The notes beneath the pieces are model-generated. The model ran no database searches, was not told the DNA's origin, and worked only from the letters and a program-made list of their open reading frames with translations. A stretch of 24,853 nucleotides of DNA from a virus (taxonomy: Duplodnaviria; Caudoviricetes), in IMG/VR virus record IMGVR_UViG_3300042260_000489, positions 1 to 24,853 of that record; one strand, 5' to 3'. Numbering within the stretch: position 1 is the first letter of the stretch; each line of letters starts with the position of its first letter. A program made the translations under genes and the position numbers. Shown here in pieces: positions 1-23,602 of this stretch.

Positions 1-1074
1 ACCTGAAGGTGGTCTAATGCCTCCGCCCATTGTCCCAAAAGGAGCATTTGCTTCCGCCACACCTTTCTGCTTCAGTGTGTCAGGATGAGCAAGACCTTTC
101 TTGACCTTTTCGGCCTGCGACATTTTATCAACGGCTTTTCCAAGTTTCTTATCAACATCGTGCCAAGTCTTGGGGTGAGGTTTTTTCAGTTTGTGAAGTT
201 GTGAGGCCGCTCTGTCATCTGCCCATTTATCAAACCCTGGGCCTTCCGCCACACCTTGCTGTTTTTTCTTGCGAATGTCGGCAATGTTTTTAGCACGATG
301 TTTCTTGTATGTGTCCATGTTAGGTGCATCTACTGGTTCAGTAGCATAGTCCCAGGCTTTCTTAGCTGCTTTAATCATCTTGTCGGTTGTGATAGATTTA
401 CCTTTGCCTTCTTTGCCTTTACCTAACTCATAGTCGTCACGGCTTCTTGTATAACCTTGGCCGTCCATTTCTGTGACTTTTTTAGCACGTTTAACTGGCA
501 ATGGATATTTCTCACAGGCTTGTTTAACTGTATCAAAATATGATAGTCCTGCTACTTTAAGTTTAGGATCAGTGCCGCTAGCATGGTAAAACGCAACTTT
601 ATCATCGGCACGAGCCGCATCACGTAATGCTGTGGCACTGCTAACACGTGGGCTAGGTACATGAGTTATTGCGGCAAACTTATAATAGCCGTGAGCTCCC
701 TCTATGCCATTATATTGATTTAATAATTTACCACTCCATGCCCAATCTTGTGCATCTGTAATATAAGCGATACTAGCGTTTTCATTCTTACGTAACTTCT
801 TAAAAATATAAGCGGCTAATGTTAGTACACTTTGTTCTGCTACAATATGTCCACTAATAGGAGGATAAATCTCTGCCATCCATGCACTCTTCTGTTCAAA
901 GGTTAATGGATCATTGGGTCCCAGTGTACTGGGATTAGTTCCAATAAACCAATTTGCACCTGCTTGTTCAACAGCACGCCATACTTCAATGTGTCCTTGG
1001 TGTGCAGGATTGAATCTACCAAAGGCAAATGCCACTGTTGCTTTTTCCGTTTCTAATAATTGATCTGTTTTCAT
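1..1074 (-). CDS. Cytidylyltransferase-like (HIGH-motif nucleotidyltransferase) protein with long modular C-terminal extension; runs off the window edge
   Basis: Not in the ORF track. The ATG at 1074 overlaps the upstream stop (ATGA). My translation is MKTDQLLETEKATVAFAFGRFNPAHQGH...NDPLTFEQK...PRVSSATALRDAA, which has the GRFNPxHxGH and SAT motifs. The frame is open to base 1, and the tail contains two GVAE repeats. Confidence 0.85.
   Translation of the reverse strand, partial: MKTDQLLETEKATVAFAFGRFNPAHQGHIEVWRAVEQAGANWFIGTNPSTLGPNDPLTFEQKSAWMAEIYPPISGHIVAEQSVLTLAAYIFKKLRKNENASIAYITDAQDWAWSGKLLNQYNGIEGAHGYYKFAAITHVPSPRVSSATALRDAARADDKVAFYHASGTDPKLKVAGLSYFDTVKQACEKYPLPVKRAKKVTEMDGQGYTRSRDDYELGKGKEGKGKSITTDKMIKAAKKAWDYATEPVDAPNMDTYKKHRAKNIADIRKKKQQGVAEGPGFDKWADDRAASQLHKLKKPHPKTWHDVDKKLGKAVDKMSQAEKVKKGLAHPDTLKQKGVAEANAPFGTMGGGIRPPSG
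51..63 (-). repeat. GGTGTGGCGGAAG repeat copy 1 (KGVAEA)
   Basis: Plus strand cttccgccacacc, an exact 13-mer, in frame. Confidence 0.95.
241..258 (-). repeat. CAAGGTGTGGCGGAAGGC repeat copy 2 (QGVAEG)
   Basis: Plus strand gccttccgccacaccttg, an exact 18-mer shared with 9965-9982 and 10535-10552. Confidence 0.95.
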
Positions 1075-2219
1075 TGTGGTGTCCAACGCTTTCTCGGTAC
1101 AAACTTCACGTTGCCGAATTGTTTATTAGAGTCTGCATATCTTACGCGACCCTCTCCATTTGTATCCCAGATATCGGCCCGAGGTCCGCTTTCAATTTGG
1201 TCAATAACCGTGTCTTTTAATATCTGAAGCGCCTTGACGATTTTAAATATTTCATCAAGTGCATTGTTATGTGTTTGATTTAATTCTTTGATCTTAGCCT
1301 GTTTGGGTGCACTTACTTTTGTTGCCGCCCACTGGAAGAAATGTACCGCACTTAAATTATCTAGTTGTTTAGCTTTGGCTGTTTGGTTTACATAGTTATA
1401 GATGATTTGTTTTAAATCACTTAAACCTGCGGCACCTTGTAGGAATGCATCTATGTGCTGTGCATGTTGTTTAATATGCTGTTCTACTTGTTGTATTTTT
1501 GTTGTGTCTACTTTAACCGGCGCTACATTGTATATCGGACCTAATACAATTAACTTTGGATTAGCATTAAATGCGGTAAAATCTTTGATCGGTATTTGTG
1601 CACTGTCGGGCTGCCCGTGTTCTGTAAAGTAAGCATGCCCAACAACCATGACTTCTGCTTGTGCAATACGCTTACCTAAGCCACTGTCAGCACGAACGTG
1701 ATAACAGGTTTGGCTCTTTGGGTTAGGGCAGAATGTATAAACGCCGTCTTTTAGTTCTGGTGGTGTCAAGAACAGTGCATCTGCATAAACATAATATGTT
1801 GTATTCCCGTCTAGTTCCTTGGGTGTAGAGGCAGCAAACAATGGCGCAAGACTGGCAAATTTATCTGCAAATTGCTGACGAGCCGCAACTTCTTCTGGTG
1901 TCACAGCCTTACCCGTGCTCATAATGTACTTGCCAACATCCTCACCAGATTGTGGTAATATACCTTTACTCCATTGTGCATGTCCGTGTGGTGGGATAAC
2001 CTGACCATTCTCACGTCCCCAATATATCTGAGGATTACCATCCCACTTCATACGAACACTAGAACTACCTTGTTCAGTGTTCATGTCTTTTAGATGTTCA
2101 AGAGCTTCTATCGTTCCTGCACTGCCATAAAAGAATACTAGATCCTCTAAGTGATTGAAAGCACGACCCAACTTAGGATCCATAGCCTCCATTAAGTCCA
2201 ATAATTCTAATAATCTCAT
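1071..2219 (-). CDS. Conserved phage protein with HLEDL and KWDG motifs (DUF6267-like; KxDG ligase-type adenylation motif)
   Basis: 382-aa ORF containing NHLEDLV and VRMKWDG, translationally coupled to both neighbours. The family assignment is from memory of the motifs. Confidence 0.65.
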   Translation of the reverse strand: MRLLELLDLMEAMDPKLGRAFNHLEDLVFFYGSAGTIEALEHLKDMNTEQGSSSVRMKWDGNPQIYWGRENGQVIPPHGHAQWSKGILPQSGEDVGKYIMSTGKAVTPEEVAARQQFADKFASLAPLFAASTPKELDGNTTYYVYADALFLTPPELKDGVYTFCPNPKSQTCYHVRADSGLGKRIAQAEVMVVGHAYFTEHGQPDSAQIPIKDFTAFNANPKLIVLGPIYNVAPVKVDTTKIQQVEQHIKQHAQHIDAFLQGAAGLSDLKQIIYNYVNQTAKAKQLDNLSAVHFFQWAATKVSAPKQAKIKELNQTHNNALDEIFKIVKALQILKDTVIDQIESGPRADIWDTNGEGRVRYADSNKQFGNVKFVPRKRWTPQ

Positions 2220-2959
2220 AGTCGGTTTAACATATTACGGAACCATTCGTTAGTACCGACTTTACTTTCTTGTTTTATTTCTTTCCAGTTAGGATCTGCC
2301 TTGCCACGAGCTAGTAATTCAGCAGCCTGTTGTTGTGGCAATGCCGCCAAGATACTTTCCACACTGCCCAACACTGCGGCATCGGCTTTACCGGTTAAAA
2401 TCTCTGCGATCTTTGCTAGATCATCAGTGACAAAGTCTGCTTTTTTACCTGCTTGATCTCTGGCAAATAAACCTTGCCAAGCACTCCACATATAGCCTTT
2501 ATCCTTGGCTAGGAATGCCATGAGTAATTGTTTGTTTACACCTTTGTAAGGACTGCCTTGTGGAATCTGATGTGTATGGAATTTAGCAACTTGATTAGCA
2601 TTAGCAGTAACCATGATATCTACTTGGTGATGCTCATTGCCAACTGGAACGTTTACGTGCACATTAATACCGGTTTGTGCTGTATCTAAACCTTTGCTTT
2701 TGATATAATCGTTTAGAGCCTTACGTGCTGTTTTAGCGTCCTTGGCTTTAAAATAATGCATTACCGTGGCTTCGTCGGCTAGAACATCCATGTCACCGCT
2801 TTGTTTGCCAGGTTTAGGTGAAGCGGCACTACCCACGGGGATAACTTCAATACCCGTACCACGTAACGCACTATTAACTGTTTTTAGAATAGCAGGCACG
2901 TCTTTGTGATCAAATGGCACAGCATTTGCAAATACATTACCACCTTCATTTAATATCAT
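2216..2959 (-). CDS. Pol-beta-superfamily nucleotidyltransferase
   Basis: VGSA...SGDMDV (GS plus DxD) and a third Asp in QVDIM. A GGAG RBS and a TAAATA promoter lie upstream. Confidence 0.75.
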   Translation of the reverse strand: MILNEGGNVFANAVPFDHKDVPAILKTVNSALRGTGIEVIPVGSAASPKPGKQSGDMDVLADEATVMHYFKAKDAKTARKALNDYIKSKGLDTAQTGINVHVNVPVGNEHHQVDIMVTANANQVAKFHTHQIPQGSPYKGVNKQLLMAFLAKDKGYMWSAWQGLFARDQAGKKADFVTDDLAKIAEILTGKADAAVLGSVESILAALPQQQAAELLARGKADPNWKEIKQESKVGTNEWFRNMLNRL

Positions 2960-2980
2960 ACTGACTCCAATATTTTATAT

Positions 2981-2986
2981 TATTTA
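2981..2986 (-). promoter_or_regulatory. T4-type late promoter core TAAATA
   Basis: Minus strand reads AAGG-TAAATA-ATATAAAATATTGGAGTCAGT-ATG. The same arrangement occurs at 10850 and 20161. Confidence 0.6.
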
Positions 2987-3009
2987 CCTTAATTAAACAG
3001 ATATATCAG

Positions 3010-3465
3010 ATCGTGACAAGTCATATATTACGGGATTTTACTAAGTGCTACGCATTGCTACGCACTATGATTCTTCATACTTGCGTATTCGAATCATTTA
3101 TTTCTAAAGTCACGGTATCGAAAAGTACTCAAATACTGGTTGATTATTTCGTAGATTCGGTCATAATTTGCCGTTAACCGGCAAAAAATAAAAACATTTC
3201 GTGAGTTCTGCTTTCATACTGTATTAATGAGATTTGCTTTAGCAACAGAGGCGGTTGACCTGTACCCCTTACTCACGACTTGACTGTCAGCGGTAACACT
3301 CATAATCCCAATACAGCGAAATTATGAATATCTGCGGTTGTATCTTTTTCACATTTCCGCAATCTTTTAGAACCTTTCGTTAGTTCCTAACGTACACAAC
3401 CTAAGACTCTGACGGCACAGCACAACCTGTACAGCCTCAATAGGGATTAGCCAACGCTAATCAAA
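3010..3465 (-). ncRNA. Candidate large structured non-coding RNA, family unassigned
   Basis: 527-bp gap with no ORF of 60 aa or more, containing about 10 short complementary pairs. One hairpin has a GCAA (GNRA) loop on the minus strand (3067-3097). Confidence 0.6.
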
Positions 3466-3486
3466 CAACCGTGTAATGATTTGATG

Positions 3487-4020
3487 TTAACGGTTATTAA
3501 ACCATTTAATGAATTCTTCTTGACCTTGTGCTAGTGAATCTTCCCATGTATTCCCTGCTTCCCCGTCAGCATTGTCACTGACCCATTTGCGACTAATCCA
3601 TGGTATTTTAACATGTTCGCAGACTTTTGCAATACTCCAGAGTTCCATATCGACTAAGTCGCAATGATCTAATGTCCATTGATCTGGATCTGTGACAAAA
3701 TTATTACCTGAGCCTACTCTAACACCTACTTCTTGACTATGATAATACAATAGATTTTCGCCTAACATATAACCACGTTCACGTAATGGGCTACAATCAG
3801 CATCACGCTGACAAACGCTGGCTACGCTGTTAAGTCCGGTTATTCCTTTTAAACTACCTGCACTACCATAGTTAATAACTAAGTCAGGTCTATGTTTAAG
3901 TACGGCCAAAGTAGCATGCATGGCTGCATTTGATACACCTACTCCTGTATAAACAACTGGGCAGTCTACTCTGGTTTTATCTAATTCTTCCTGTAATGCT
4001 ACTAAGATTAATGTTTTCAT
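3487..4020 (-). CDS. MTA/SAH nucleosidase-like (PNP_UDP_1 family) protein
   Basis: ALQEE, TGVG, INYGSAG, VDME and KWVSDNAD motifs. Confidence 0.85.
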   Translation of the reverse strand: MKTLILVALQEELDKTRVDCPVVYTGVGVSNAAMHATLAVLKHRPDLVINYGSAGSLKGITGLNSVASVCQRDADCSPLRERGYMLGENLLYYHSQEVGVRVGSGNNFVTDPDQWTLDHCDLVDMELWSIAKVCEHVKIPWISRKWVSDNADGEAGNTWEDSLAQGQEEFIKWFNNR

Positions 4021-4760
4021 TTTTCTACAAATGCTCTTTCTACTACAAATTGTCCAGGTTCGCGAATACTGCCTTCCTGCATGCCCTGATCACGACACCA
4101 TGCCGCAACTTGATGATTAAATTCTAAATTACCACATACCATGATTTTATCTTCTGCTATATTAACAGGTAATTGTCCCAAAGTCAACTGTGTTGTGATC
4201 CTGGCTTCACCGTTACCTGTGAGTATAGGATGATATTCTAGCACATTACTAACCATTTCATGCAAGTCACCGTCTTGAGGATGAAGTTTAAATGCAGATG
4301 CTAAGTCTGTGTTGTAAGCTAGATCTTTAGCTTCTCTGACACTGTGTACTATATGAATCTTTGACCATGTTTCCAGTGTTTCTAAGTCACGTATCAGACT
4401 CATAAAAGGAGCAAGTCCTGTACCAGTGGCCAGCATCCATAGTTCTCCGCCTTTATCTAGAGCACTGTTGACCAGTGTACCTGTACATTTAGGCATGATG
4501 ACAACTTCGCTGCCAATTTCGATGTGTTGAAGTTTACTGGTTAACTCTCCGTCTTGTATTTTAATACTAAGAAATTCCAGTTCTTCAGCCCAAGGTGGAT
4601 TTACTATACTGTAAGCTCTGACAACTCTTTTACCGTTAATCATTAAACCAATCATGGCGAATTCGCCGGCAGTAAATCGAAATGCAGTATTTCTGGTGCA
4701 TTTAAAACTAAACGTTCTGTCGCTCCAATGATGTACCCATGTGACTCGTTCTGTAAACAT
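4017..4760 (-). CDS. fpr: Ferredoxin/flavodoxin-NADP+ reductase (bacterial type)
   Basis: RAYSI, GELTSKL, ATGTGLAPF and MVCG motifs, with C-terminal VERAFVEK. Confidence 0.93.
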   Translation of the reverse strand: MFTERVTWVHHWSDRTFSFKCTRNTAFRFTAGEFAMIGLMINGKRVVRAYSIVNPPWAEELEFLSIKIQDGELTSKLQHIEIGSEVVIMPKCTGTLVNSALDKGGELWMLATGTGLAPFMSLIRDLETLETWSKIHIVHSVREAKDLAYNTDLASAFKLHPQDGDLHEMVSNVLEYHPILTGNGEARITTQLTLGQLPVNIAEDKIMVCGNLEFNHQVAAWCRDQGMQEGSIREPGQFVVERAFVEK

Positions 4761-4768
4761 TAATATCC

Positions 4769-4890
4769 AAAATAAAAGCTCACTTTGAGCAGAGTCTGGC
4801 GTAACCCTGAACCAGGCAGCAGCCGCCTGTTTGACGCCTGGAGCAACTAGTGCTCCTAACCGTTAGCGACAACGGCCCTAAGGTGGGTTC
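4769..4890 (-). ncRNA. Candidate structured cis-regulatory RNA or sRNA ending in a terminator-like hairpin
   Basis: GC-rich intergenic segment with several stems and a possible pseudoknot, ending in GCTCA-AAG-TGAGC-TTTTATTTT just before the fpr ATG. Confidence 0.55.
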
Positions 4891-5850
4891 TTATTGTGTA
4901 TTTAGTTTGCTGATAATAGGAATCCACTGCTTGCGTAACTGCATCATACTGTTTTTAAATCCAGCAGGAGTTAGTTCTCGTTCATCAGAAAACATTAAAT
5001 TATTGTCAAAAAACTGTTGGGCTTCCTTGCCAAGAATAATGCTGCCGAAATTTTTTACATACCAGTCAATAATTTCTTTGGGAGTGTCTTTTGGTAAAAT
5101 TAGTCCCCATGCGGCATAGACATTCATACCTGGAATATATTGATTCATTAGTGGAACATCGGGAATCTGTGCCAGCTTCTTTTCGCCGCAGATTGCCAGT
5201 ATTCGAATTTTACCAGACTGTGCCAGTGTTTGTGCAACGGCAACAGGAAGTATACCGTAGTCTACTTCTTTGCCGGCAACTGCCACAGCCGCTTGAGCAG
5301 GTCCTTTATATCCAACCAACTGAACCTTTGTTTCGTCTAGTTTTAACTTATCACTCATATAATTATATGCTAATTTATGTGCTCCACTGCCCGCGGCTAT
5401 ATTCAAGGGCTTAACTGGATTTTGTATTGTCTTTAAAAATTCTGGAACAGTTTTGATGTCACTGTCACCGGGTACAACTATAGCTAGGGGACTTTTAGCA
5501 ATACTCATTACGTATTCAAAGTCATTTAATGTATATTTCACAGCGGCTTTATTGAAATATTCTGCAGTGACCCAAATACCTTGATGGCTGGGTACATACA
5601 AATGATATCCGTCATTGGGTTTAGTTATAAAATCATTCATAGCTATTACGCCATCTGCGCCAGGTTGATTTCGTATAATAAACGTGAGGTCTTTATTCTG
5701 CCTTTCCAATAATGCACTAACGCCCCTAAAACTAAGTTCATTTCCAGAACCAGGAGCGAAACCTACATATACATTTATAGGTTTAGTTGGTTGCCAGGCA
5801 ATTGCATTAGCACTTAAAACCAGTGTTAAAATTGCTAGAAATTTTTTCAT
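4891..5850 (-). CDS. Bug/TctC family tripartite tricarboxylate transporter substrate-binding protein
   Basis: Signal peptide followed by PTKPI..VGFAPG, NQPGADG, YKGPAQA, PDVP and WGLILPKDTP motifs. An AAGGA RBS is present. Confidence 0.9.
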   Translation of the reverse strand: MKKFLAILTLVLSANAIAWQPTKPINVYVGFAPGSGNELSFRGVSALLERQNKDLTFIIRNQPGADGVIAMNDFITKPNDGYHLYVPSHQGIWVTAEYFNKAAVKYTLNDFEYVMSIAKSPLAIVVPGDSDIKTVPEFLKTIQNPVKPLNIAAGSGAHKLAYNYMSDKLKLDETKVQLVGYKGPAQAAVAVAGKEVDYGILPVAVAQTLAQSGKIRILAICGEKKLAQIPDVPLMNQYIPGMNVYAAWGLILPKDTPKEIIDWYVKNFGSIILGKEAQQFFDNNLMFSDERELTPAGFKNSMMQLRKQWIPIISKLNTQ

Positions 5851-5875
5851 GTGTATTTCCTTTGTGGTTAGTTGA

Positions 5876-5906
5876 TATAAATAAATTTACATTGTAAATA
5901 TTTATA
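5876..5906. promoter_or_regulatory. Two perfect T4-type late promoters (TATAAATA): plus strand 5876-5883 and minus strand 5899-5906
   Basis: Exact TATAAATA on each strand within the 76-bp divergent intergenic region. Confidence 0.65.
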
Positions 5907-5926
5907 CAATAACTCAAAAAAATACT

Positions 5927-6658
5927 ATGAATACTAAAATTTTTAATCTTCTTAAAAAAAATTTATTACAAGCGTTCAATTTACCCAAGTACTCTAAAAT
6001 TTTAGCCGCCATCGACGAAAATACAGTAGTGGATCAGTTACCCTGGACACCTGCCCGCTATCGCAAGTTCAAAGATGCCGTGGATGCCGAGTTACATTTA
6101 TCCTGCGATTATGTAGGTACACTGGGTGACATCACAGCAGATCTCAGTGACAGATATACAATGAGATTTTTTGGAGAAATTTGGATGCCCAGAACCGACG
6201 AATACAGTCACACTGGTTGGCAACTAGCAGATGAAGTTAATAAACTCAATCCTAAAAACGTCCTCGATGTAGGCTGCGGGTATCACCCATTCAAGGGAAG
6301 AATTCACAACATCGTAGGTATAGATCCCTACAACAATGCAGCTGACTATCAAGTAGATATCAGAGATTATAAAGTAAAACCTGAAAGTCATGATGTTATC
6401 ATAGCACTGGGTAGTATTAATTTTAATAGTAAAGATGAAATCGAGGAAAGATTTTCGGCCTGCGTTAGTTTACTTGCAAAAAATGGCAGATTTTATCTAC
6501 GTGCCAACCCCGGCAGGCCACATAAGACAGGACCCTATGTAGATATATTTCCCTGGAGTTTTGAAGTAGTAAATGAATTTGCAGAACGGTATAATCTTAA
6601 ATTGTTAGAATTTAAAAAAGATGTTGATCGTTTATATTTTGTATATGAAAAGCTATGA
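5927..6658 (+). CDS. Class I SAM-dependent methyltransferase with an extra N-terminal domain of about 75 aa
   Basis: VLDVGCG motif I, GIDP, HDVIIALGSINF and LAKNGRFY. Confidence 0.85.
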   Translation: MNTKIFNLLKKNLLQAFNLPKYSKILAAIDENTVVDQLPWTPARYRKFKDAVDAELHLSCDYVGTLGDITADLSDRYTMRFFGEIWMPRTDEYSHTGWQLADEVNKLNPKNVLDVGCGYHPFKGRIHNIVGIDPYNNAADYQVDIRDYKVKPESHDVIIALGSINFNSKDEIEERFSACVSLLAKNGRFYLRANPGRPHKTGPYVDIFPWSFEVVNEFAERYNLKLLEFKKDVDRLYFVYEKL

Positions 6659-7233
6659 TATTACCAAATAGAATATTTTTTACCGGTGTCCCTGGAAGCC
6701 GTTGGAGTGGCATAGCACAAATTTTAGAATCTCTGGCTGGTTTCAACACTTCAGATAGAACACTGGCCAGAACCTATGACCACAACAGTTTTAGCGGTCA
6801 CAAAGGAGCTTATTTTGGTAGACTCATGGAATTTGAAGCCAAACTTGATGCCGGTTATTTACAAACTGCCTGGGAAAAACAAGGTGGCACTTGTTTAGTT
6901 AAAAGTCATGACTGGGCCTATAGTCTGGATAAAATAAAAACAGAGTTTCCTGACGACTGGATTATATTAGTGCACAGACCTGATGATACAAGTTTTACAT
7001 GGTGGAAGCAAGCAGGTGGATTTGATATCAAGTACCCCAGTTACCTTGCTTACCATAATGATCAAATAATGCAACGAGAAATCAACTGGCAAAATCAAGC
7101 CATACTAAAGTTTGCAGAACAGAATTCTCTAGTCTGGAGTAAATTTACTTCAGAGTGGATCAGTGAACACTTTGATCAGCAAGTAGCAGATATAAGTGTG
7201 GCAGATGACATCAGGGTCGCTATATTAAAATGA
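6655..7233 (+). CDS. P-loop/sulfotransferase-like fold protein
   Basis: N-terminal IFFTGVPGSRWSG, a later LVKSH and IILVHR, matching the sulfotransferase-like layout. Coupled to the upstream gene by ATGA. Confidence 0.55.
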   Translation: MILPNRIFFTGVPGSRWSGIAQILESLAGFNTSDRTLARTYDHNSFSGHKGAYFGRLMEFEAKLDAGYLQTAWEKQGGTCLVKSHDWAYSLDKIKTEFPDDWIILVHRPDDTSFTWWKQAGGFDIKYPSYLAYHNDQIMQREINWQNQAILKFAEQNSLVWSKFTSEWISEHFDQQVADISVADDIRVAILK

Positions 7234-7457
7234 GAGACCATGTCTGGTACATTAAATACGCCAGCGCCATAGTAATTTTATCTGCTATGGTGTTACATGT
7301 GCAGGGAATAACACCCTGGAACAGTCTACTTCAGATGCTGGGCGCAAGTGGTTGGATATATGTAGGATGGCGCTGGCGAGAACGTGCACTGATGCTAAAC
7401 TTTATACCGCAGTTCTTTATTATTATTCCTGGCTTGATATACATGTATTACAAATAA
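7230..7457 (+). CDS. Small 3-TM membrane protein
   Basis: 75 aa with three hydrophobic segments, coupled by ATGA overlap. Confidence 0.75.
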   Translation: MRDHVWYIKYASAIVILSAMVLHVQGITPWNSLLQMLGASGWIYVGWRWRERALMLNFIPQFFIIIPGLIYMYYK

Positions 7458-7458
7458 T

Positions 7459-7629
7459 TCAAGCAAAAGTCACATAAGCCGCACATACAACAAAGAATGT
7501 GATCAGAGCAACAGTGACACCGAAGAAATACCACATAACTGGAAAGAACAACATCCAGGCTATGTGGTATAGCTCAAACCACCAAGGTAAATCTCTTTTA
7601 ATTGCACCAGCTTTGTTTGGCTTCGCCAT
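7459..7629 (-). CDS. Small membrane protein (56 aa), below the ORF-track cutoff
   Basis: Translates as MAKPNKAGAIKRDLPWWFELYHIAWMLFFPVMWYFFGVTVALITFFVVCAAYVTFA. It fills the gap exactly and overlaps the end of the SNase gene. Confidence 0.55.
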   Translation of the reverse strand: MAKPNKAGAIKRDLPWWFELYHIAWMLFFPVMWYFFGVTVALITFFVVCAAYVTFA

Positions 7630-8038
7630 AGTATTCACGAGCGAACCCGTTTTGAATTAATAATCCACGTAGACTAGTATTGTTATCTAATATAATATCA
7701 CCTAGCATACGTCCGCCATACTTGTCCCAGCCTTGTACAGCTACACGAGCTGTCTTACTTTCAGTGATAACTTTCTTCGTAAATGCAGTGGCTGCTTCTC
7801 CACGTTGCGCTTCGCTGGCACACATAGCTCTGTGTCCTTTTTCAGGAGTATCTACGCCAAATACGCGAATGCTCATTTTCTTGGGTAGTGGATCCGGGAC
7901 CCAGGGTGTAGCTACTTCTACAGTATCTCCGTCTACTACACGATTTATTTTCCAGTCATAGACGACCATGGGCTTTTCTTTTTGTGCCAGTGCCACTGTA
8001 CATATAGACAGTAACATTATTGATATGATTTTTTTCAT
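7598..8038 (-). CDS. Thermonuclease (SNase family) with signal peptide
   Basis: RVVDGDT, IRVFGVDTPE, DKYGGRMLG and LIQNGFAREY motifs, with an N-terminal signal peptide ending ALA. Confidence 0.92.
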   Translation of the reverse strand: MKKIISIMLLSICTVALAQKEKPMVVYDWKINRVVDGDTVEVATPWVPDPLPKKMSIRVFGVDTPEKGHRAMCASEAQRGEAATAFTKKVITESKTARVAVQGWDKYGGRMLGDIILDNNTSLRGLLIQNGFAREYYGEAKQSWCN

Positions 8039-8039
8039 G

Positions 8040-8675
8040 TTATTTCCAAATTACCATTTTGAATCGTTCTTTTGGTACTCCAAAATAGTTGCACTTCCAG
8101 TCACTTTGTGCAAAGAATTCTAAATGGTGCCATTTATCTTTGTATTTAATCAAATCTTTGGCAGCAGAGTTCCAATCGATATTTTTGAGTACGGGTTCTA
8201 TTTCTTTTTTAATTATAGAAATTTCATCGTAGTTAAAGCTATCCCATTCCCAGTGTAATATTTCAAATGAATTACCCTGTTGATCTACGTAATCCATGCT
8301 AAAATCCAGTCCCCATTTTGCTCGTATGGCAATAACCTTGTATACTAGTGGAAGTTTTTTAGCCCAGTGCTGTAATTGTTCTAATGCTGGTCCAGCATAG
8401 GCTTTGCGCTCAAATAAATTACTGTGATTCAGTACAGCGCCTTCTAGTTTAACTTCTTCAGTGAACCAATCATGTTTAATTGCATGCCTATGACCACGTT
8501 GATTTTTAGGCTTAACATAATTACCATAAGCATAGTGACGTTCCAGTTGTGTGAGATCATAGCCATTTTGATCAAACAATTCTAAGTCTTCGTAGGTGGG
8601 TTCATAGAGTAATTTGGCTATTGGGTTTCGCCAGTAGCCATCTGGATTAAACTCACTGTCAGTTAAAGTTAACAT
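8040..8675 (-). CDS. Hypothetical phage protein
   Basis: 211-aa ORF with 1-nt spacing to both neighbours and no motif I recognise. Confidence 0.75.
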   Translation of the reverse strand: MLTLTDSEFNPDGYWRNPIAKLLYEPTYEDLELFDQNGYDLTQLERHYAYGNYVKPKNQRGHRHAIKHDWFTEEVKLEGAVLNHSNLFERKAYAGPALEQLQHWAKKLPLVYKVIAIRAKWGLDFSMDYVDQQGNSFEILHWEWDSFNYDEISIIKKEIEPVLKNIDWNSAAKDLIKYKDKWHHLEFFAQSDWKCNYFGVPKERFKMVIWK

Positions 8676-8676
8676 T

Positions 8677-9075
8677 TTATTTTATAATAGGACCGCCGGT
8701 GATCCATAATTCACAACTACGGCTTCCGGCACATTTAAAATGTAGTAAGTTACAATAGCCTAAGTCTGCGGCTTCTCTAGTCTTTTCTTCCTGATATGCT
8801 TGTTTGCCCATGCCATCGTGTATACATTTGTACATAGCATCGGTGATATTAAAAGCCGCACAATTAGCGCATTGCATTGTCTTAGCAGTTTTTTCATCGA
8901 TGTTCCATTGCTTGGCTGCAACTTTCCAATAATCTCCGGGCTTGTCTGGATTAGCAGGACCATAGTGATGATTGTCTATACCTACTTGTCGATTCTTGAC
9001 ATTGACTTCTAAATCGTGAGTAGCAATAGGACAGCCTTTGCCAGCCGCTTCTACAATCGTAATATATTTTCTCAT
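8677..9075 (-). CDS. Cys-rich protein with a HiPIP-like cysteine pattern (probable metal or Fe-S binding)
   Basis: CANCAAF...GYC..LHFKCAGSRSCELW. I placed the start at ATG 9075 because of the TAATG overlap, rather than at 9081. Confidence 0.6.
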   Translation of the reverse strand: MRKYITIVEAAGKGCPIATHDLEVNVKNRQVGIDNHHYGPANPDKPGDYWKVAAKQWNIDEKTAKTMQCANCAAFNITDAMYKCIHDGMGKQAYQEEKTREAADLGYCNLLHFKCAGSRSCELWITGGPIIK

Positions 9076-9473
9076 TACCACTTACGGCAACTCCAGTAAC
9101 GTGCTTTTGTTCTTGGACCTGGATTAGCACAGTTGTGACGTGCTCTAAAACTTTTACGTCTTGCAGGATTACTTTTCTTAATACGCATATTAGGATCGCC
9201 AAAGTTTACTTTAACAGTTTTACCTGTTTTAGGATTTCTAACATAGACTTTAAACTTCTTAACGTCACCCTGCATGGGCTTACCTAGTTTAACTGTGCGT
9301 CCTTGATATTCTGCTTCTAATAATGTCATACCTAGATCATTGTCAGTTTCGCAGATGTAATCACCTTGATCTATTCCAGCTATAACTGTTTCTACCAACT
9401 CGTCGCCGATTTCTACTTCAAGTATATCACCAACTTCTGGAACATCAGTGTCAATAATTTCATCTAATCTCAT
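9075..9473 (-). CDS. Phage protein with an acidic N-terminal half and a basic C-terminal domain (RRKSFRARHNC...YWSC), possibly nucleic-acid binding and virion-associated
   Basis: Sharp acidic-to-basic switch at LLE|AEY, His/Cys motif, and TAATG coupling. Confidence 0.7.
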   Translation of the reverse strand: MRLDEIIDTDVPEVGDILEVEIGDELVETVIAGIDQGDYICETDNDLGMTLLEAEYQGRTVKLGKPMQGDVKKFKVYVRNPKTGKTVKVNFGDPNMRIKKSNPARRKSFRARHNCANPGPRTKARYWSCRKW

Positions 9474-10825
9474 TATTCGCCCTTTGTCGTTAACATAAAT
9501 TTTTTGCCCTGATTAAAAGGCTTTTGCATCATTGTAACTGCGGCTTTATTAGCCGCCGCCTTACCCACAAATGTATATGGTTGGCCTTCTTTGTTCTTCA
9601 ATAATTTACCGTCAATAGTAATATACCAAGTACCGCTGGCTGCTATGCGTTCGTTTCTACGGTCGATTTCGTGATGCTCGTCGTCTTCGCGTTCTCTGCG
9701 TCCCCAATTAGCTTCACCGCCATAGTCACCTTGGTAGTCTGGCATATTGCTGTCCCAGCTTGCTCTACCCGTTGCACGACCAAAACCTGCTTCGTTCATA
9801 GCATTCCAATCTTCGTGGCCAATGTAAAAATCAGTTTCAGGATCGTAGTACTTGCCTTCTTGGGGATCGTAATAAACAACTTTACCACTGCGAGTACTAA
9901 ATGGGCCTTCTAAACCTGGTCGTTCTTGATAGCGTTCGCGATCAATGCCGCGAGTTACGGTATAGCCTTCCGCCACACCTTGCAGTTCTTTTTGCGTAGC
10001 TCCTGCTTTTCTAGCAGCCTCGGCATCTTTGGGATCTTTGGTTTTGTGATATCGTGCTGTCAACTCTTTGCGTGTGCCACCTTGACTTGGAGGATTGTAG
10101 TCCGTGACTCCGGTGCCTTCCGCCACACCCTCTGGTAAGTTGGGAGCAGGATGACGACCTAATCTATCAGCAACTTTAGCCTTCATTACTTTAGCATCTT
10201 GACCATGCATCTTACCAGCTTTAGTAGTTCTAAAATCCCCGCCGGGTTGACTTGGGCGACCCAAGTTGCTACTGCGAGAGTCTCGGCCAAACGGCTTGTC
10301 ATCTCTACCCCAGTAACTTACTTCACCGGCTTTTTGTAAATGTGCAGAACCCTTGGGACCGAAACGCTTGGCAACATACTGCTCGATAGCATCGTATTCT
10401 TCATCTTCTTCTGGGTTAGTTTCACCTGCGTGACCTTGATAGACCAATTGAGTATAACGATTGATTATCTGTTTAAAACTTGGGTTAGAAGATAAATCAA
10501 TCGGCTGCATTCCATCGTCGTTTAAATCGTAATAGCCTTCCGCCACACCTTGTTCACGACCGTCTCTAAAAGCAGTCATTAAAAATTCTTTGGCGTCTGC
10601 CCAGTTCTTTACATTAAGAACATGTGGTTCATAGCCTGCACGTTTTTCACGTCCCACAGCGTTTAACGCAATGTCCAGTAACGTTGTTTGTAGAAATTCC
10701 AGAGCCTGAGCGCCCTTAATGCCTTGTGCATGCATTTTCTTTTCAATGCCTTTGAGAGCCATATAAGTTCTCATATTGTCATCTGTTTTTATCTGTGGCG
10801 CTTCTTCTATTTGGTGAAATCTCAT
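9473..10825 (-). CDS. Modular hydrophilic protein with three GVAEG junctions (putative virion internal polyprotein)
   Basis: 450 aa containing EQGVAEG, PEGVAEG and LQGVAEG. A late promoter and AAGGA RBS lie upstream. Confidence 0.8.
   Translation of the reverse strand: MRFHQIEEAPQIKTDDNMRTYMALKGIEKKMHAQGIKGAQALEFLQTTLLDIALNAVGREKRAGYEPHVLNVKNWADAKEFLMTAFRDGREQGVAEGYYDLNDDGMQPIDLSSNPSFKQIINRYTQLVYQGHAGETNPEEDEEYDAIEQYVAKRFGPKGSAHLQKAGEVSYWGRDDKPFGRDSRSSNLGRPSQPGGDFRTTKAGKMHGQDAKVMKAKVADRLGRHPAPNLPEGVAEGTGVTDYNPPSQGGTRKELTARYHKTKDPKDAEAARKAGATQKELQGVAEGYTVTRGIDRERYQERPGLEGPFSTRSGKVVYYDPQEGKYYDPETDFYIGHEDWNAMNEAGFGRATGRASWDSNMPDYQGDYGGEANWGRREREDDEHHEIDRRNERIAASGTWYITIDGKLLKNKEGQPYTFVGKAAANKAAVTMMQKPFNQGKKFMLTTKGE
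9965..9982 (-). repeat. CAAGGTGTGGCGGAAGGC repeat copy 3
   Basis: Exact 18-mer. Identity with the 10535 copy extends to 21 nt (9962-9982 vs 10532-10552). Confidence 0.95.
10115..10129 (-). repeat. GGTGTGGCGGAAGGC repeat copy 4
   Basis: Plus strand gccttccgccacacc, an exact 15-mer, in frame. Confidence 0.95.
10535..10552 (-). repeat. CAAGGTGTGGCGGAAGGC repeat copy 5
   Basis: Exact 18-mer, in frame. Confidence 0.95.
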
Positions 10826-10831
10826 GGTGGA

Positions 10832-10865
10832 AAATCCTTGCTAATATGTTATTTAGCAAGGATTT
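10832..10865 (-). promoter_or_regulatory. 13-bp perfect inverted repeat containing a late promoter (TAAATA, 10850-10855) and the downstream RBS
   Basis: aaatccttgctaa (10832-10844) and ttagcaaggattt (10853-10865) with an 8-nt loop. Confidence 0.75.
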
Positions 10866-10883
10866 ATTAGAAATAAAATTTAA

Positions 10884-11159
10884 TTATTTCTTGGCAGTTG
10901 TAGTCTGATAAGCCTTCATTACGCCTTCGCCAAACTTGGCGTAGTCGAATTTAGTAGCGTTTTGATACGCCTTGACGGTTTCACTGGCCAGTGTGCTAAC
11001 AGTATCTTGACCGACTTTAACAGCTTTCTTTGTATATTCTGCCTGCGCATCAACAAAGTTGACTAGGGCTTCTTTTACGGTTTCGTTGGTAACGAATGTG
11101 TTGACAAAAGTTTTTTTGCCAGTTTGTACTGTATCGATAATTGCATCTGCTGTAAACAT
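10884..11159 (-). CDS. Small amphipathic helical protein, phasin-like
   Basis: 91 aa, rich in Ala/Thr/Lys/Val with a helical pattern. It has a strong AGGAGA RBS and its own sigma70 promoter. The phasin call is a resemblance only. Confidence 0.55.
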   Translation of the reverse strand: MFTADAIIDTVQTGKKTFVNTFVTNETVKEALVNFVDAQAEYTKKAVKVGQDTVSTLASETVKAYQNATKFDYAKFGEGVMKAYQTTTAKK

Positions 11160-11218
11160 GTAGTTCTCCTTAATTAAGCAAGATAATAATATAGCTCTGT
11201 CTTAGACGCTATGTGTTT

Positions 11219-11247
11219 ATTATACAATTACTTATCGGTAAAGTCAA
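11219..11247 (-). promoter_or_regulatory. Sigma70-type promoter TTGACT-N17-TATAAT
   Basis: -35 at 11242-11247 and -10 at 11219-11224 with a 17-nt spacer. A late-like TAAGTA lies within the spacer. Confidence 0.8.
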
Positions 11248-11249
11248 GA

Positions 11250-11277
11250 AAAAATGTGCGGTCGCAGCATTTTTTTC
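11250..11277. promoter_or_regulatory. Imperfect palindrome AAAAATGTGCGGTCGCAGCATTTTT: operator or bidirectional terminator
   Basis: TGCG/CGCA core with A/T-tract flanks, between the RimK-like stop and the -35 of the next promoter. Confidence 0.5.
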
Positions 11278-11290
11278 TAGTGTTTGGTCA

Positions 11291-12193
11291 CTAATTTATC
11301 AGCCCTTTAATAATTTCTGGATAGATATTTAAATCAGAGTGCATCAAATCAAAACCCTTGAGCATGGGAACGGTGTTGATTTCTCCAACCAAAAAGCCAT
11401 GTTTACCCATTAAAAAATCAATGCCCGCATAATTCAATCTAAATAATTTACAGATGTTCAAACTCATTTCAGATAAGGTATTAGTTAGTTCAAATGGTTT
11501 TCTGTCATAGCTACCACTGGTAGTGTTTGCTTTCCAGTGACAGTGTGACAGTTTTAGATATGAGCCTAGACATTTGTTGTTTAATACAATTACTCTAACC
11601 GTTTGTCCCTGTGATTCTTTGATATATTCTTGAATTAAAAGTTTAGCAGTAGTGTCGTTGTTTGCGGTTCTAAGTGAACAGATGTTTAACAAGGAAAATG
11701 TATCCTCGAACTCCTGTTGGGTATTGATCTTGATTACACCTCTGCCCAGTGACGAGTTTGTAATTTTGAGCACACAGGGCCAACCCATGTCATCGTTAAT
11801 ACGTTTAATTAATGCACCTTTGTCATCTAAGAATAAAGGATTAATGTGCAGTGTTTTTGGAACTGGGAACCCTGAATTTTTTAATTCAATGTATGACAAC
11901 ATTTTATCATCTGCAATAATTGAATTATAAATCGGATTTAACACACCTACACCGCGTAGCTCTAAATCACGTAGATATTGCTGATGACTAAACGTTGTCA
12001 TCTGTGACATATTAAAAACTGCTCGTGGTAGATCTTCGTCAAGTGGTGTTATAAGTTGTTGCCCACCCAACTTAACTATGTTAAAACCTAAATCAGTGGC
12101 AGCTCTAGTCAATCTTTGTATTTCATAGTCTGAATGAATTGCCGAAACACTGGGATGAGAGTTAAATGTAAGAACTATTTGATCTTTTTTCAT
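11291..12193 (-). CDS. RimK-like ATP-grasp ligase
   Basis: DDK, PVPKT, PCVLK..SSLGRGV, IQEYI, YAGIDF and GEINTVP motifs. Confidence 0.9.
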   Translation of the reverse strand: MKKDQIVLTFNSHPSVSAIHSDYEIQRLTRAATDLGFNIVKLGGQQLITPLDEDLPRAVFNMSQMTTFSHQQYLRDLELRGVGVLNPIYNSIIADDKMLSYIELKNSGFPVPKTLHINPLFLDDKGALIKRINDDMGWPCVLKITNSSLGRGVIKINTQQEFEDTFSLLNICSLRTANNDTTAKLLIQEYIKESQGQTVRVIVLNNKCLGSYLKLSHCHWKANTTSGSYDRKPFELTNTLSEMSLNICKLFRLNYAGIDFLMGKHGFLVGEINTVPMLKGFDLMHSDLNIYPEIIKGLIN

Positions 12194-20219: not shown

Positions 20220-20936
20220 TTAGGTTTCAGAGATCAAAACTGCTTTTTCAACACTGTCATAATAATTATCCAGCAATAACTGAAGCATCATTACATCTTT
20301 GTCGTCGTTAAGATATATTGAAAATGCACTGTATCTGTACCTAAATCTCGGAGCACTGAGTTGTTCAGGTGTCATTGCCATTGCAGTAGCCAGTGTAGAG
20401 TTAGCACTCCATCTAGTACCATCTTCGTTGTCCATGGCATCCAGCCAGTTTTTTAAAGAGTCAAAATCATTGAATTTCCAAGTCCAACTATTTTTAATAT
20501 TTACTTTATATCTATACTGCTTTAAGAACAAAGTTCTACGCACCCTAATCCTGTGATTATCTAACATAAGTTGTTTGTGATTTTCACTGGCAGGAACACT
20601 GATTTCTATGATGCAGTTCTGTAATCGATCAATTAAATCCTCAAAAATTTCACTGTTGTCAAGATACATGGTAACATATTTTTGTTCTGATCTAAATTTG
20701 CATTCGAGATCGTCGGGTAATTTGTCTATAATTCTTCGCTTTAATTCGTTTTGCAAAGAGATTATATTGGTTCGTGAATACGAACCATACCAGCCACGCT
20801 CGATGTTTGATCTAACGATTTTGTCATCATCCACTGTAAAGCATATCCTATAAGCATACTTTTTATAGTACAGCTTTTCAGTGGTGTAAACTCGTATTCC
20901 TTTAGGAAACTTGTTCAATGCCATAGTCAGTACCAT
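20220..20936 (-). CDS. Hypothetical protein (true start may be MALNK, a few codons in)
   Basis: 238-aa ORF overlapping the end of clpA, with an apparent internal duplication (LYYKKYAYRI vs LFLKQYRYKV). Confidence 0.7.
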   Translation of the reverse strand: MVLTMALNKFPKGIRVYTTEKLYYKKYAYRICFTVDDDKIVRSNIERGWYGSYSRTNIISLQNELKRRIIDKLPDDLECKFRSEQKYVTMYLDNSEIFEDLIDRLQNCIIEISVPASENHKQLMLDNHRIRVRRTLFLKQYRYKVNIKNSWTWKFNDFDSLKNWLDAMDNEDGTRWSANSTLATAMAMTPEQLSAPRFRYRYSAFSIYLNDDKDVMMLQLLLDNYYDSVEKAVLISET

Positions 20937-23106
20937 TATAGGTAACCATTATAGTGCAACCTACAAGATTGTCAAACACAATCTTTTTACTCAATGGTTT
21001 CTTAATTTTTTCTGCAATGATTCGTTTCATTGGTCTCGCCCCCATCTTCTCATCAAAACCTTCGGTGACCAGTTGATCCAGTGCAGATTCTGTTACTTGT
21101 ACTTTGATACCACGAGATTCCAGCAATTCATTGAGTTCGTCAATAAACTTCATAGCGATTGGCTTAACCTGTTCTTTGCTTAGTCTATTAAATTCAATGA
21201 TAGCATCTAAACGATTACGGAACTCAGGCGTAAAATGCTTGTTTACGGCTTCGATACTAGCTGTACTATTTGTGCTATTATCAAAACCAATACGATTACG
21301 TTCGCCGTCTCTGGCGCCCAGGTTGCTGGTCATAATCAATACAACGTTACGGCAACTTACACTTTTACCACTGCTACTGGTAAGCATACCATTGTCCATG
21401 ACACCTAACAAGATGTTTAAAACATCTGGGTGTGCTTTTTCAACTTCGTCTAGTAATAGAACTGCACTGGGGTGTTGTTCCAGGTCATTTATAAGTTTAC
21501 CAGAACCAGCATCTCCCTCACCGTAACCAACATAGCCCGGGGGCGCACCAATCAAACTTGCCACTTTGTGACTTTCCATGTATTCGCCCATGTCGTAACG
21601 TAACAGTGTCATGTCTAAACAAGTAGCAAGTTGATTGGCTAATTCTGTTTTACCTACACCAGTTGGTCCAACAAACAAATAGCTACCCATGGGCTTTGTA
21701 ATGTCCTTTAATCCAGCTTTGGTAATATAAACCGCATCCAGTAATTGTTCAACCGCAGTGTCCTGACCAAACACTTTGGCCTTGATTGTTGATTCGTAGT
21801 TGATATTAAAGTTATCTGTTTTTACTGTGAGCTGTTCCAGGGGAATCTTTGCTTGCTCACTGATCTCGTGTTTGACTAAGTCAACAGTAAGTTCTTTATC
21901 TAAGTTAATAACTTTTAATTTTGCCATGGCACTGTCTAAAACATCAATAGCTTTGTCTGGCAAGTACCTATCGTGCATGTGCGTAACTGTTAGATCAACC
22001 ACGGCATCTAGTGCCGCATCTTCGATGTGAATCTCATGATAGAGTTCATATTGTGGCATTAGTGCACGTAACATTGTTTTACAATCTTCGGGTGTCATTT
22101 CCACGACATCTAATTTTGTAAACCTGCGAGCCAGTGCACGATCTGGTTCCACGGTCTCTCGGTATTCCTCATAGGTCGTACTACCAATAACTTGTAATTT
22201 ACCACGAGTAAGTGCAGGCTTTAACAAGTTTGCCATGTCCATACTACTATTACCTGCGGCGCCTGCGCCCACTACAGTATGTATTTCGTCAATAAACAGA
22301 ATAGCATTATCTCGTGATTCCAAAACTTCAATAACTTGTTTAATTCGTTCTTCGAAGTCGCCTCGGTATTTTGTACCTGCCATTAATGCGCCCATGTCAA
22401 GACTATAAACAACACAGTCCTTAATCGTATGAGGTACGACATTTTCAACGATTTTACGAGCAAGACCTTCTACAATAGCAGTTTTACCTACACCGGGATC
22501 ACCGACTAAAATAGCATTACGCTTTTTGCGGCGTGCAAGTATCTGTGTGAGTTTATCTACTTCCTTGTTACGACCGATCAACGGATCTACGTTGCCACTC
22601 TTTGCTTCGGCGTTCATGTTAACACAGAATTCTTTTAATACTTTTTCGCCGGGATCACGAGTTTTACTGTCTGTTTTCACCGTTTTACCTACAGCGTCTA
22701 GTACGCTTTCTTTGGTAATACCATGACTGCTTAAATAAAAACAAGCATGGCTATTCTTTTCGCTGAGCACACTTAGTAACATGTCCTGTGGGCTAATACT
22801 GGCACGTCCATTAAAAATAGCCTGTGTAAACGCGCGATTAAATGCACGTTCAAGACTCTGTGTCTTTCTAGGCTTAGTCAGACCCTGCACAACTAGATAG
22901 TCTTGGCTAGCAAGGAAATTTTTAATATCCTCACTAATAGGCTGTGATGCAACACCCATGGAAGAAAGTATGTCTGTTATATCTTTATGTTCTAATATTA
23001 CCAGAGTTAGATGTTCTAGTGTTACGTATTCATGTTCACTGAGAAGTGCGAGACGGAAAGCACGTTCTAGGATTTCGTTGATTGGTTGATTGTCTTCCAT
23101 GGGCAT
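20902..23106 (-). CDS. clpA: ATP-dependent Clp protease ATPase subunit ClpA
   Basis: [10 protein letters not shown]-domain, two Walker A motifs ([16 protein letters not shown]), Walker B motifs FIDEIH and LLDEVEK, IGF loop and GARP. It lacks the ClpB middle domain. Confidence 0.95.
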
Positions 23107-23107
23107 A

Positions 23108-23602
23108 TTATTTCCTTTTTAAATTCTTTTTTCTACGTTTGGTTGCAAGGTCTAAACTTAGCTTTCCTACTTTATTTACAAAACAAACACCGTTTAAGTG
23201 GTCTAGTTCATGTTGAAATACTCTTGCTGGCAGCCCCGTAAATTCGTGTTCTTGTTCTCTACCTATAATATCTTGATATTTTACGGTAATAGTTTCTGGG
23301 CGTTCAACATTTAACCATAGTCCAGGAAAACTCAAACATCCTTCCTGATCTCGATTTGTACCCTGTGTGCTGGTTATTTCTGGATTGACACAGATATAAC
23401 TGCGTTGCTGATTGCCCATGACAAAGACTCGCTTATTGACGCCAATTTGCGGCGCCGCGAGTCCGATTCCATTATTTTCAAACATTATTTTAAGCATGCT
23501 CTGGGCAAGTTCGGCTATTTCACCGTCATTGTCCCAGTTCCAGTCTTCAGACACTTTTTTTAGAGTGTCGTCAGTTTCTTTAACTAAATTATAAATCGTC
23601 AT
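23108..23602 (-). CDS. def: Peptide deformylase
   Basis: GIGLAAPQ, EGCLS and QHELDHLNG motifs. Confidence 0.97.
   Translation of the reverse strand: MTIYNLVKETDDTLKKVSEDWNWDNDGEIAELAQSMLKIMFENNGIGLAAPQIGVNKRVFVMGNQQRSYICVNPEITSTQGTNRDQEGCLSFPGLWLNVERPETITVKYQDIIGREQEHEFTGLPARVFQHELDHLNGVCFVNKVGKLSLDLATKRRKKNLKRK

Follow-up and report, generated by a model that had tools for sequence, protein, structure and literature searches.

The viral contig stored as IMG/VR record IMGVR_UViG_3300042260_000489, a complete record of 24,853 bases (24.8 kb) that is called the window throughout, raises the question of why one tetrapeptide, Gly-Val-Ala-Glu (GVAE), should be spelled with the same DNA letters at all five of its occurrences, in two genes whose products are named here P0001 and P0002. 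The answer that we hold with moderate confidence, built on sequence comparison, is that an in-frame linker of ~20 bases joins the modules of putative head cargo proteins in giant, likely T4-related freshwater phages, that it is a joint of exchange, and that a prohead protease is predicted to cleave it behind its Glu. In its two parts, this means that the linker marks the points at which related phages exchange, gain and lose modules, and that it is likely a cutting site of the head protease.

A peptide linker fixed at the DNA level

Five exact copies of the 13-mer GGTGTGGCGGAAG lie on the minus strand at 51-63, 243-255, 9967-9979, 10117-10129 and 10537-10549, exactly where an initial annotation of this DNA had placed them, and no further copy appears in the window when up to two mismatches are allowed. 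Shuffled versions of the window hold a mean of 0.18 copies, and five or more were reached in none of 100 shuffles. The annotation had also claimed one strand and one frame for all copies, which stands for all five (each reads GGT GTG GCG GAA, or GVAE, in frame), with the correction that the letters it gave are those of the minus strand and that the plus strand reads their reverse complement. Three copies fall in the open reading frame (ORF) at 9473-10825(-), encoding P0001, and two in that at 1-1074(-), encoding P0002. The start-to-start spacings of 192, 150 and 420 nucleotides (nt) were given correctly, and are multiples of three because the copies concerned share one ORF. Three copies (243, 9967 and 10537) do extend, as reported, to the 18-mer CAAGGTGTGGCGGAAGGC, here called canonical; one of the other two is preceded by GAG, and the other is preceded by AAA and runs on into GCA. 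A description of the two genes as wholly unrelated needs qualifying, as a similar short leader opens both P0001 and P0002. The five linkers are listed below, with amino acid (aa) positions in P0001 and, where low, the predicted local distance difference test score (pLDDT) of an AlphaFold model of that protein.

10535-10552, minus strand: linker 1, the canonical 18-mer, read as QGVAEG (aa 92-97), between modules A and B; pLDDT below 50 at aa 94-100
10115-10132, minus strand: linker 2, GAG + 13-mer + GC, read as EGVAEG (aa 232-237); pLDDT below 50 at aa 233-264
9965-9982, minus strand: linker 3, the canonical 18-mer, read as QGVAEG (aa 282-287), ahead of module D
241-258, minus strand: linker 4, the canonical 18-mer, read as QGVAEG, in the P0002 tail
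49-66, minus strand: linker 5, AAA + 13-mer + CA, read as KGVAEA, in the P0002 tail

The identical synonymous spelling claimed for the GVAE sites is found at 5/5 of them, and it includes the rarest Val and Ala codons of the 31 window ORFs, GTG (12.3% of Val) and GCG (9.6% of Ala), next to GGT and GAA, which are the commonest codons. Six other Val-Ala-Glu sites, in frames of at least 60 aa, all use GTA or GTT with GCA, GCT or GCC. The chance of this GVAE encoding is 0.5% per site, and that of five sites sharing any one encoding is about 2e-6.

As the window is a whole record, genome-wide copy counts were confined to related contigs. The 18-mer CAAGGTGTGGCGGAAGGC is estimated to occur in 920 IMG/VR stored stretches, and among the 154 copies in the 126 loci that were fetched, all except one have the QGVAEG frame open for at least 100 codons, while the other two sense frames are open to that length in only 2 and 0 cases; the flanks of the copies are otherwise unrelated in sequence. 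The window sequence itself was found in freshwater metagenome runs (six runs of four studies, as Logan contigs). Among cultured phages, none of 50,697 records holds the 18-mer, and a 33-base query around the motif gave three chance matches there (E = 4).

Five contigs of 262-374 kb contain 15 sites able to encode GVAEG, 13 of them canonical and two with one silent change; the sites lie on one strand per genome, clustered, in few genes, and no non-coding, antisense or guide-like copy is present in these five contigs. A chi-like or nick site was considered and dropped, there being only 1-5 copies per 260-370 kb, clustered in one gene class. When CAR, GTN and GCN were left free (112 loci read of the 126), 101 of 135 sites proved canonical and 17 lay one step away; the usage-favored spelling GTA GCA was seen once among the 135, and GTC and GCC were not used. 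The bias extends into the codon before the 18-mer, where AAG outnumbers AAA by 32 to 7 (background 68/161), GAG outnumbers GAA by 23 to 10 (33/132) and CAG outnumbers CAA by 24 to 0 (22/87). Because this codon ends in AG far above usage, the conserved unit is a DNA block of ~20 bases that starts mid-codon, and not a string of codons. The listing of GVAEG sites in the five large contigs, the count with free silent positions and the preceding-codon count are free of selection by the 18-mer, and the module-D locus count given below was likewise counted as unbiased by that choice.

Mosaic joints between modules

What the block joins is clearest in P0001, whose layout is a leader at aa 1-9 (MRFHQIEE/A, a slash here and below marking a presumed cut), module A at aa 10-91, B at 98-232, C at 238-281, D at 288-345 and E at 346-450. 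Module D ends in a non-canonical candidate site, MNE/A.

9473-10825, minus strand: P0001, a multi-module protein of 450 aa
10133-10534, minus strand: module B (YYDLN...NLPE), the most widely shared module
9791-9964, minus strand: module D, aa 288-345, matching phrog_13298 and, separately, KVP40.0154 and its relatives
9476-9790, minus strand: module E, aa 346-450, the same C-terminal module being present in other motif proteins

Among the 119 P0001 homologues listed, of 473 found by BLASTP, high-scoring segment pairs (HSPs) start preferentially at aa 90-94 (47), 282 (8) and 344 (10) and end preferentially at aa 232-241 (61) and 345-348 (19), positions that are those of the three linkers and of the fourth boundary, MNE/A; module B is covered by 74-85 of the listed homologues. 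A relative, P0003, is 72% identical to P0001 overall, with an unrelated insert that replaces modules C and D and is bounded exactly by LPE/ and xxE/AGFG. The AlphaFold model of P0001 has four confident modules (predicted template modeling score, pTM, 0.32), and stretches with pLDDT below 50 begin at all three linkers and at MNE/A, between the confident modules. The end of module B, NLPE, directly abuts linker 2 (10115-10138(-)), so that two candidate cuts, LPE/GVAE/G, stand four residues apart; cutting at both would release a free GVAE tetrapeptide.

Comparison of the copies with one another gives the same picture of joints between unrelated neighbors. In peptide comparisons of 50 residues on each side of every copy, copies against copies, 48 pairs are similar upstream only, 42 downstream only and 9 on both sides, and the similarity mostly extends to within 0 residues of the motif. 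At the DNA level, where sequence had to be present in both partners, 29 pairs are similar upstream only and 26 downstream only (55 one-sided), with 8 similar on both sides. An all-against-all blastn of the 126 loci placed 34 of the 46 non-edge ends of HSPs of at least 90% identity on the canonical motif, although just 4.9% of positions are as near to one, and in 18 of the 34 the motif is present in both partners. The most precise event is a 318-nt cassette that lies between two motif copies in locus L063, where L098 has only one; identity between the two loci is complete over the 120 nt upstream and 92.5% over the 93 nt downstream. Furthermore, Logan contigs from the same lake samples match one flank of the window and diverge at 51, 241-258, 9981 and 10554, and one such contig matches window 9808-9981 and diverges at both ends. 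These contigs, taken over window 1-11200, are unable to show circles or rare deletions, and apparent Logan joints from 261/264 to 10527/10534 were discarded, their sides of 18-23 letters being the motif aligned to another copy. The in-frame exchange at the repeat that had been proposed is supported by homology between contigs that starts or stops at the motif, by a cassette lying exactly between copies and by the boundaries of the 119 homologues. Homologous recombination over the ~20 shared bases is enough to account for the pattern.

The second linker-bearing protein, P0002, consists of a leader (MKTDQLLETE), a cytidylyltransferase-like domain at about aa 1-190, for which solved structures gave 0 sequence matches, and a basic tail with two linkers.

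1-1074, minus strand: P0002 (ORF 1-1086, ATG at 1074), its 3' end lying beyond the left end of the window
1-439, minus strand: hypervariable P0002 tail, replaced in contig G006

Contig G006 (43.8 kb) is a twin of the window, 99.64% identical to it over window 440-12065 (11.6 kb), and its rating as 8% complete at that length indicates a very large genome. The P0002 tails of the two differ (window 1-439 against 1-374 of locus L289 in G006). One tail module is common to both (PKTWHDVD...KGVAE, 83% DNA identity) and has different neighbors in each; in G006, GGGGTGGCGGAAG (KGVAEG) stands behind a module homologous to the one before linker 5.

Predicted cleavage and competing explanations

The peptide at the joints is more widely conserved than its DNA. 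Module D, searched for without its linker, was found at 35 viral loci, fused behind x-x-E-G at 27 and present as a stand-alone gene at 8 (~60 codons, as in Vibrio phage KVP40); 24 of the 27 have a hydrophobic residue (Val, Met, Leu, Ile, Phe or Tyr) in the third place ahead of the presumed cut. Module B is preceded by ...x-E-G in at least 56 of 73 matches and itself ends in ...Leu-Pro-Glu; the module-B locus search, made with a single protein, reached 9 loci. Where the same frames hold near-variants of the 13-mer, the Glu persists with two exceptions (GVAK), and the Val position holds Val, Met, Ile or Leu. Hydrophobic-x-Glu/Gly is kept at module boundaries irrespective of codons.

The same ending is found at protein starts. 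In phage T4, internal proteins carry a ten-residue capsid-targeting sequence (CTS) at the N-terminus (PMC8442874), which gp21 removes after Glu, CTS residues 8 and 10 governing processing (PMC9026906 and PMC5694885). P0001, P0002 and four neighbors in the window open with CTS-like or leader-like starts, and the pattern M-K/R-x-x-D/E/Q-hydrophobic opens 29 of the 43 motif ORFs whose start is visible, compared with 36 of 320 other ORFs of the same loci. As in T4 IPI, IPII, IPIII and Alt, this leader ends in hydrophobic-x-Glu, and a cut after the Glu is predicted here. An x-E/ ending is common to the N-terminal leaders and the internal linkers, and in two loci, L064 (MRATEFIIE-GVAEG) and L083 (MRINEILVEQ-GVAEG), the linker stands directly behind the N-terminal leader, which makes leader end and linker equivalent positions.

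A further sign that the residues behind the linker may become N-termini comes from five distinct segments resembling twin-arginine translocation (Tat) signals (RRGFL[KR]G plus an Ala/Gly-rich stretch) in related proteins (L127, L131, L086, L119 and L132), four of which follow a GV[AS]E linker at a distance of 4-7 residues, the fifth following an N-terminal leader. Tat signals function only at the N-terminus. A cut at the linker, if it occurs, would leave a Tat-like module with an export signal at the N-terminus so created.

Locus L127, 11654-13552, minus strand: Tat-signal-like segment at aa 319-339

Genes for a T4-type prohead protease are found in some of the relatives: Peptidase_S77 is present in four of nine related contigs searched (G002, G003, G004 and G009), and G009 also has a T4-type capsid gene (Gp23). 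Together with the boundary peptides, the leaders, the Tat-like modules and the low-confidence linkers of the model, these genes lend indirect support to the protease site that the annotation had proposed as the second role of the motif.

In the mechanism that we propose, a CTS-like N-terminal leader would take the chain into the prohead, where a gp21-type prohead protease would cut after each Glu and free the modules. Crossovers would be ordinary homologous recombination inside the shared block, and because every copy is read in one frame and is flanked by self-contained modules, any crossover between copies would yield a working chain. The canonical block would be one spelling of the cut site that doubles as shared homology. 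For the fixed spelling we favor a birth-and-death account, in which cassette insertions would multiply copies, only intact copies would go on recombining, and mutated copies would remain as dead joints that are likely still cuttable; the star-like spectrum of variants is consistent with it.

Several observations weigh against this reading. The canonical DNA is exact in only 2 of the 27 fused module-D loci, one being the window's twin, and relatives spell the same joint GTA GCT, GTA GCA or with other residues. Variable codons at GVAE sites elsewhere, which the annotation had named as a refuting outcome, are thus partly seen: relatives often use other codons or residues at the same joint, even though the canonical spelling prevails in the large contigs (13/15) and in the count with free silent positions (101/135). 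Loci fetched by the exact 18-mer are preselected, and the identity of that copy in those loci proves nothing. The sole swap between near-identical genomes, the window and G006, breaks at ~440, off the motif, so that the expectation that indel breakpoints coincide with the repeat is borne out by the 318-nt cassette of L063 and L098 and contradicted by this pair. The 320 control ORFs of the leader count include spurious frames, and the Tat-like segment that was scanned scores 20.4 bits for TAT_signal, below the Pfam cut-off of 22.7. Protease and capsid genes were not found in the window, a 24.8-kb fragment; no protease match was found in G005, G006, G008 and G010, all partial; and G001 (342,865 bases, rated 99% complete) gave no match to Pfam Peptidase_S77, to Gp23 or to the G003 protease used as query. 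G001 carries four canonical linkers together with leader-type N-termini, and it may be that the linker crosses phage lineages, or that the protease and capsid genes of this phage are too diverged to detect.

The rival that takes the DNA block most literally holds that a dedicated enzyme, such as a homing-type or RNA-guided nuclease or a site-specific recombinase, recognizes the block and drives insertion and excision of cassettes, the peptide being merely a harmless translation of the site. It would account for a conserved unit that starts mid-codon, for silent positions that stay fixed though modules have diverged to 72-75% DNA identity, for the clustering of copies in few genes and for the precise cassette indel between direct repeats. 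We nevertheless judge it improbable. The absence of a recombinase from the window, which the annotation had reported, holds for all 31 ORFs searched with Pfam and PHROGs (other genomes were not screened), no homing nuclease lies beside the repeat copies within the window, and the only nucleases there are SNase-like and UvdE-like. A pure DNA site would be tolerable in antisense frames too, yet the five large contigs hold no such copy and 153 of 154 copies are in frame; and x-E-G is kept at joints that lack the DNA block, which implies that the peptide itself matters. A second rival accepts the peptide and denies the cut: GVAEG would be a flexible, uncut linker between the domains of multi-domain proteins that are not cargo, and the fixed DNA a short homology for domain shuffling. 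The mosaic joints, the low-confidence linkers of the P0001 model and the lack of a protease or capsid gene in the window and in the G001 searches all fit this explanation, to which we give the same low weight as to the dedicated enzyme. It leaves unexplained why joints, however spelled, keep Glu-Gly and a hydrophobic residue two positions ahead of it, why the x-E/ pattern recurs at the ends of N-terminal leaders, why modules occur as stand-alone genes and why Tat signals of N-terminal type stand just behind linkers.

The fixed spelling might also be a signal in RNA or translation, such as a pause between modules, caused by rare codons or by a Shine-Dalgarno-like sequence, or a site at which an RNase divides the message, as could be suspected from the use of the rarest Val and Ala codons and from the sense orientation of every copy. 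Rare GTC and GCC are not used, however, and GGT and GAA are the commonest codons; by eye, the only Shine-Dalgarno match is AAGG, and the mosaic joints would have no explanation. Of 141 contexts, only 19 have a start-like codon behind the 18-mer (ATG 7, TTG 12), for which reason internal start sites were dropped as a candidate, and a signal of this kind seems to us very unlikely. Chance, or an artefact of assembly or adapters, can be given next to no weight: although chimeric assembly at an adapter would likewise join unrelated flanks, 0 of 100 shuffles reach five copies, frames run open through 153 of 154 copies, contigs from many separate data sets carry the motif, as do six runs from four studies, and an 18-mer is shorter than Logan's 31-letter words and cannot alone join contigs.

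Genomic setting, known systems and significance

The window's other genes include a tail fiber with collagen repeats, a holin, a ClpA-like ATPase, a peptide deformylase, UvdE, a RimK-like ligase and a TctC-family binding protein. The nearest relatives of the ClpA-like protein are in jumbo phages such as Atu_ph07 and PA5oct (42-44% identity). A ClpA/ClpB-like ATPase, a peptide deformylase and a RimK-like ATP-grasp ligase occur together on this single phage fragment, and the TctC-family protein is an unusual auxiliary gene for a phage contig; the latter may hint at a betaproteobacterial host. The four neighbors with leader-like starts, listed last, may be further head cargo that lacks the DNA-fixed linker, to judge from their first residues.

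20902-23602 and 11291-12193, minus strand: ClpA/ClpB-like double AAA+ ATPase (734 aa), peptide deformylase and RimK-like ATP-grasp ligase
4891-5850, minus strand: periplasmic binding protein of the TctC family (tripartite tricarboxylate transporter receptor), its start resembling a signal peptide
8677-9473, minus strand: two small genes with CTS-like starts, MRKYITIVE/A and MRLDEIID..., without GVAE linker
1071-2959, minus strand: two genes with leader-like starts, MRLLELLDLME/A (a DUF6267 protein) and MILNE/G

Several known systems resemble the linker in part. The internal proteins of T4 are a diverse and fast-changing cargo in which conservation is limited to the signal for targeting and cutting (PMC8442874, PMC9026906, PMC3012670, PMC5694885), and the putative cargo described here is similar in this respect. 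T4 internal proteins are single and cut once; the chains described here consist of unrelated modules, with internal repeats of a signal whose DNA letters are fixed over hundreds of contigs. No window protein has sequence similarity to T4 internal proteins in Pfam or PHROGs. Many head and inner-body proteins of the giant phages phiKZ, 201phi2-1 and SPN3US are processed at S/A/G-x-Glu, according to the available text of PMC5694885 and PMC9026906, which likewise gives a three-residue motif with Glu before the cut and multiple sites per propeptide; cutting in the present case is predicted, with Val, Met, Leu or Ile in the third place ahead of the cut, where those phages have Ser, Ala or Gly. The same text describes neither DNA-level conservation nor module swapping for the phiKZ-type sites.

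On the side of exchange, the closest parallel is the promoter-early stem-loop (PeSL) cassettes of T4-type phages, which mediate modular shuffling and for which mini-circles were shown (PMC2839356). Like PeSLs as described there, the linker is a short, conserved, functional DNA element whose direct repeats surround variable, non-essential cargo and mark insertions, deletions and replacements between close relatives, and a repeated conserved DNA element is indeed present at breakpoints between the related genomes studied here. PeSLs are intergenic promoter-terminator elements that move whole genes, whereas the block is intragenic, translated and frame-locked and moves parts of proteins; the intergenic promoter and terminator stem-loop were not found, 153 of 154 copies lying inside long open frames. 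The glycine-rich motifs of the gp38 adhesins of T-even phages are, according to PMC3157838, also conserved in-frame motifs between variable, exchanged segments, but they belong to one family and to a structural core, where the linker joins unrelated modules and proteins and is modeled as disordered. A literature search found no published description of the linker in phages, subscription journals lying outside its reach. Integrons and the R64 shufflon depend on a tyrosine recombinase of their own and on sites that are structured or inverted. As in their cassettes, short repeated sites bound exchangeable units here, and shufflon sites too lie inside a coding region; unlike attC (structured) and sfx (inverted), all linker copies are direct repeats on one strand. 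With every copy in direct orientation on the coding strand and no recombinase found among the window's ORFs, the system is neither an integron nor a shufflon, and the site-specific mechanism of that type first suggested for it is set aside.

A bolder extension, which we put forward tentatively and hold to be rather doubtful, is that the 20-base block would be a universal in-frame adaptor, any two copies of which, in any gene or phage of the freshwater clade, could cross to give working chains that are cut apart. The phages would then share a pool of injectable mini-proteins (anti-defense proteins, enzymes and even proteins rerouted to the periplasm by Tat signals that the cut exposes) through an intragenic, integron-like cassette market that needs no integrase. 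The spelling would be kept by selfish cassettes, able to spread only as long as their adaptors stay intact.

Should the linker prove to be both cut and recombined, it would be a route by which large phages renew the proteins that they carry into the cell, with modules exchanged between genes and between phages and reading frames left unbroken. The T4 idea of a conserved signal with variable cargo would be extended from single proteins to shuffled chains, and the linker would be a clear natural case in which selection, or selfish spread, bears on the synonymous sites of a peptide linker. Hundreds of uncharacterized small modules would become candidate injected effectors, and the linker itself would supply, ready-made, a cleavable adaptor with which proteins could be loaded into capsids.

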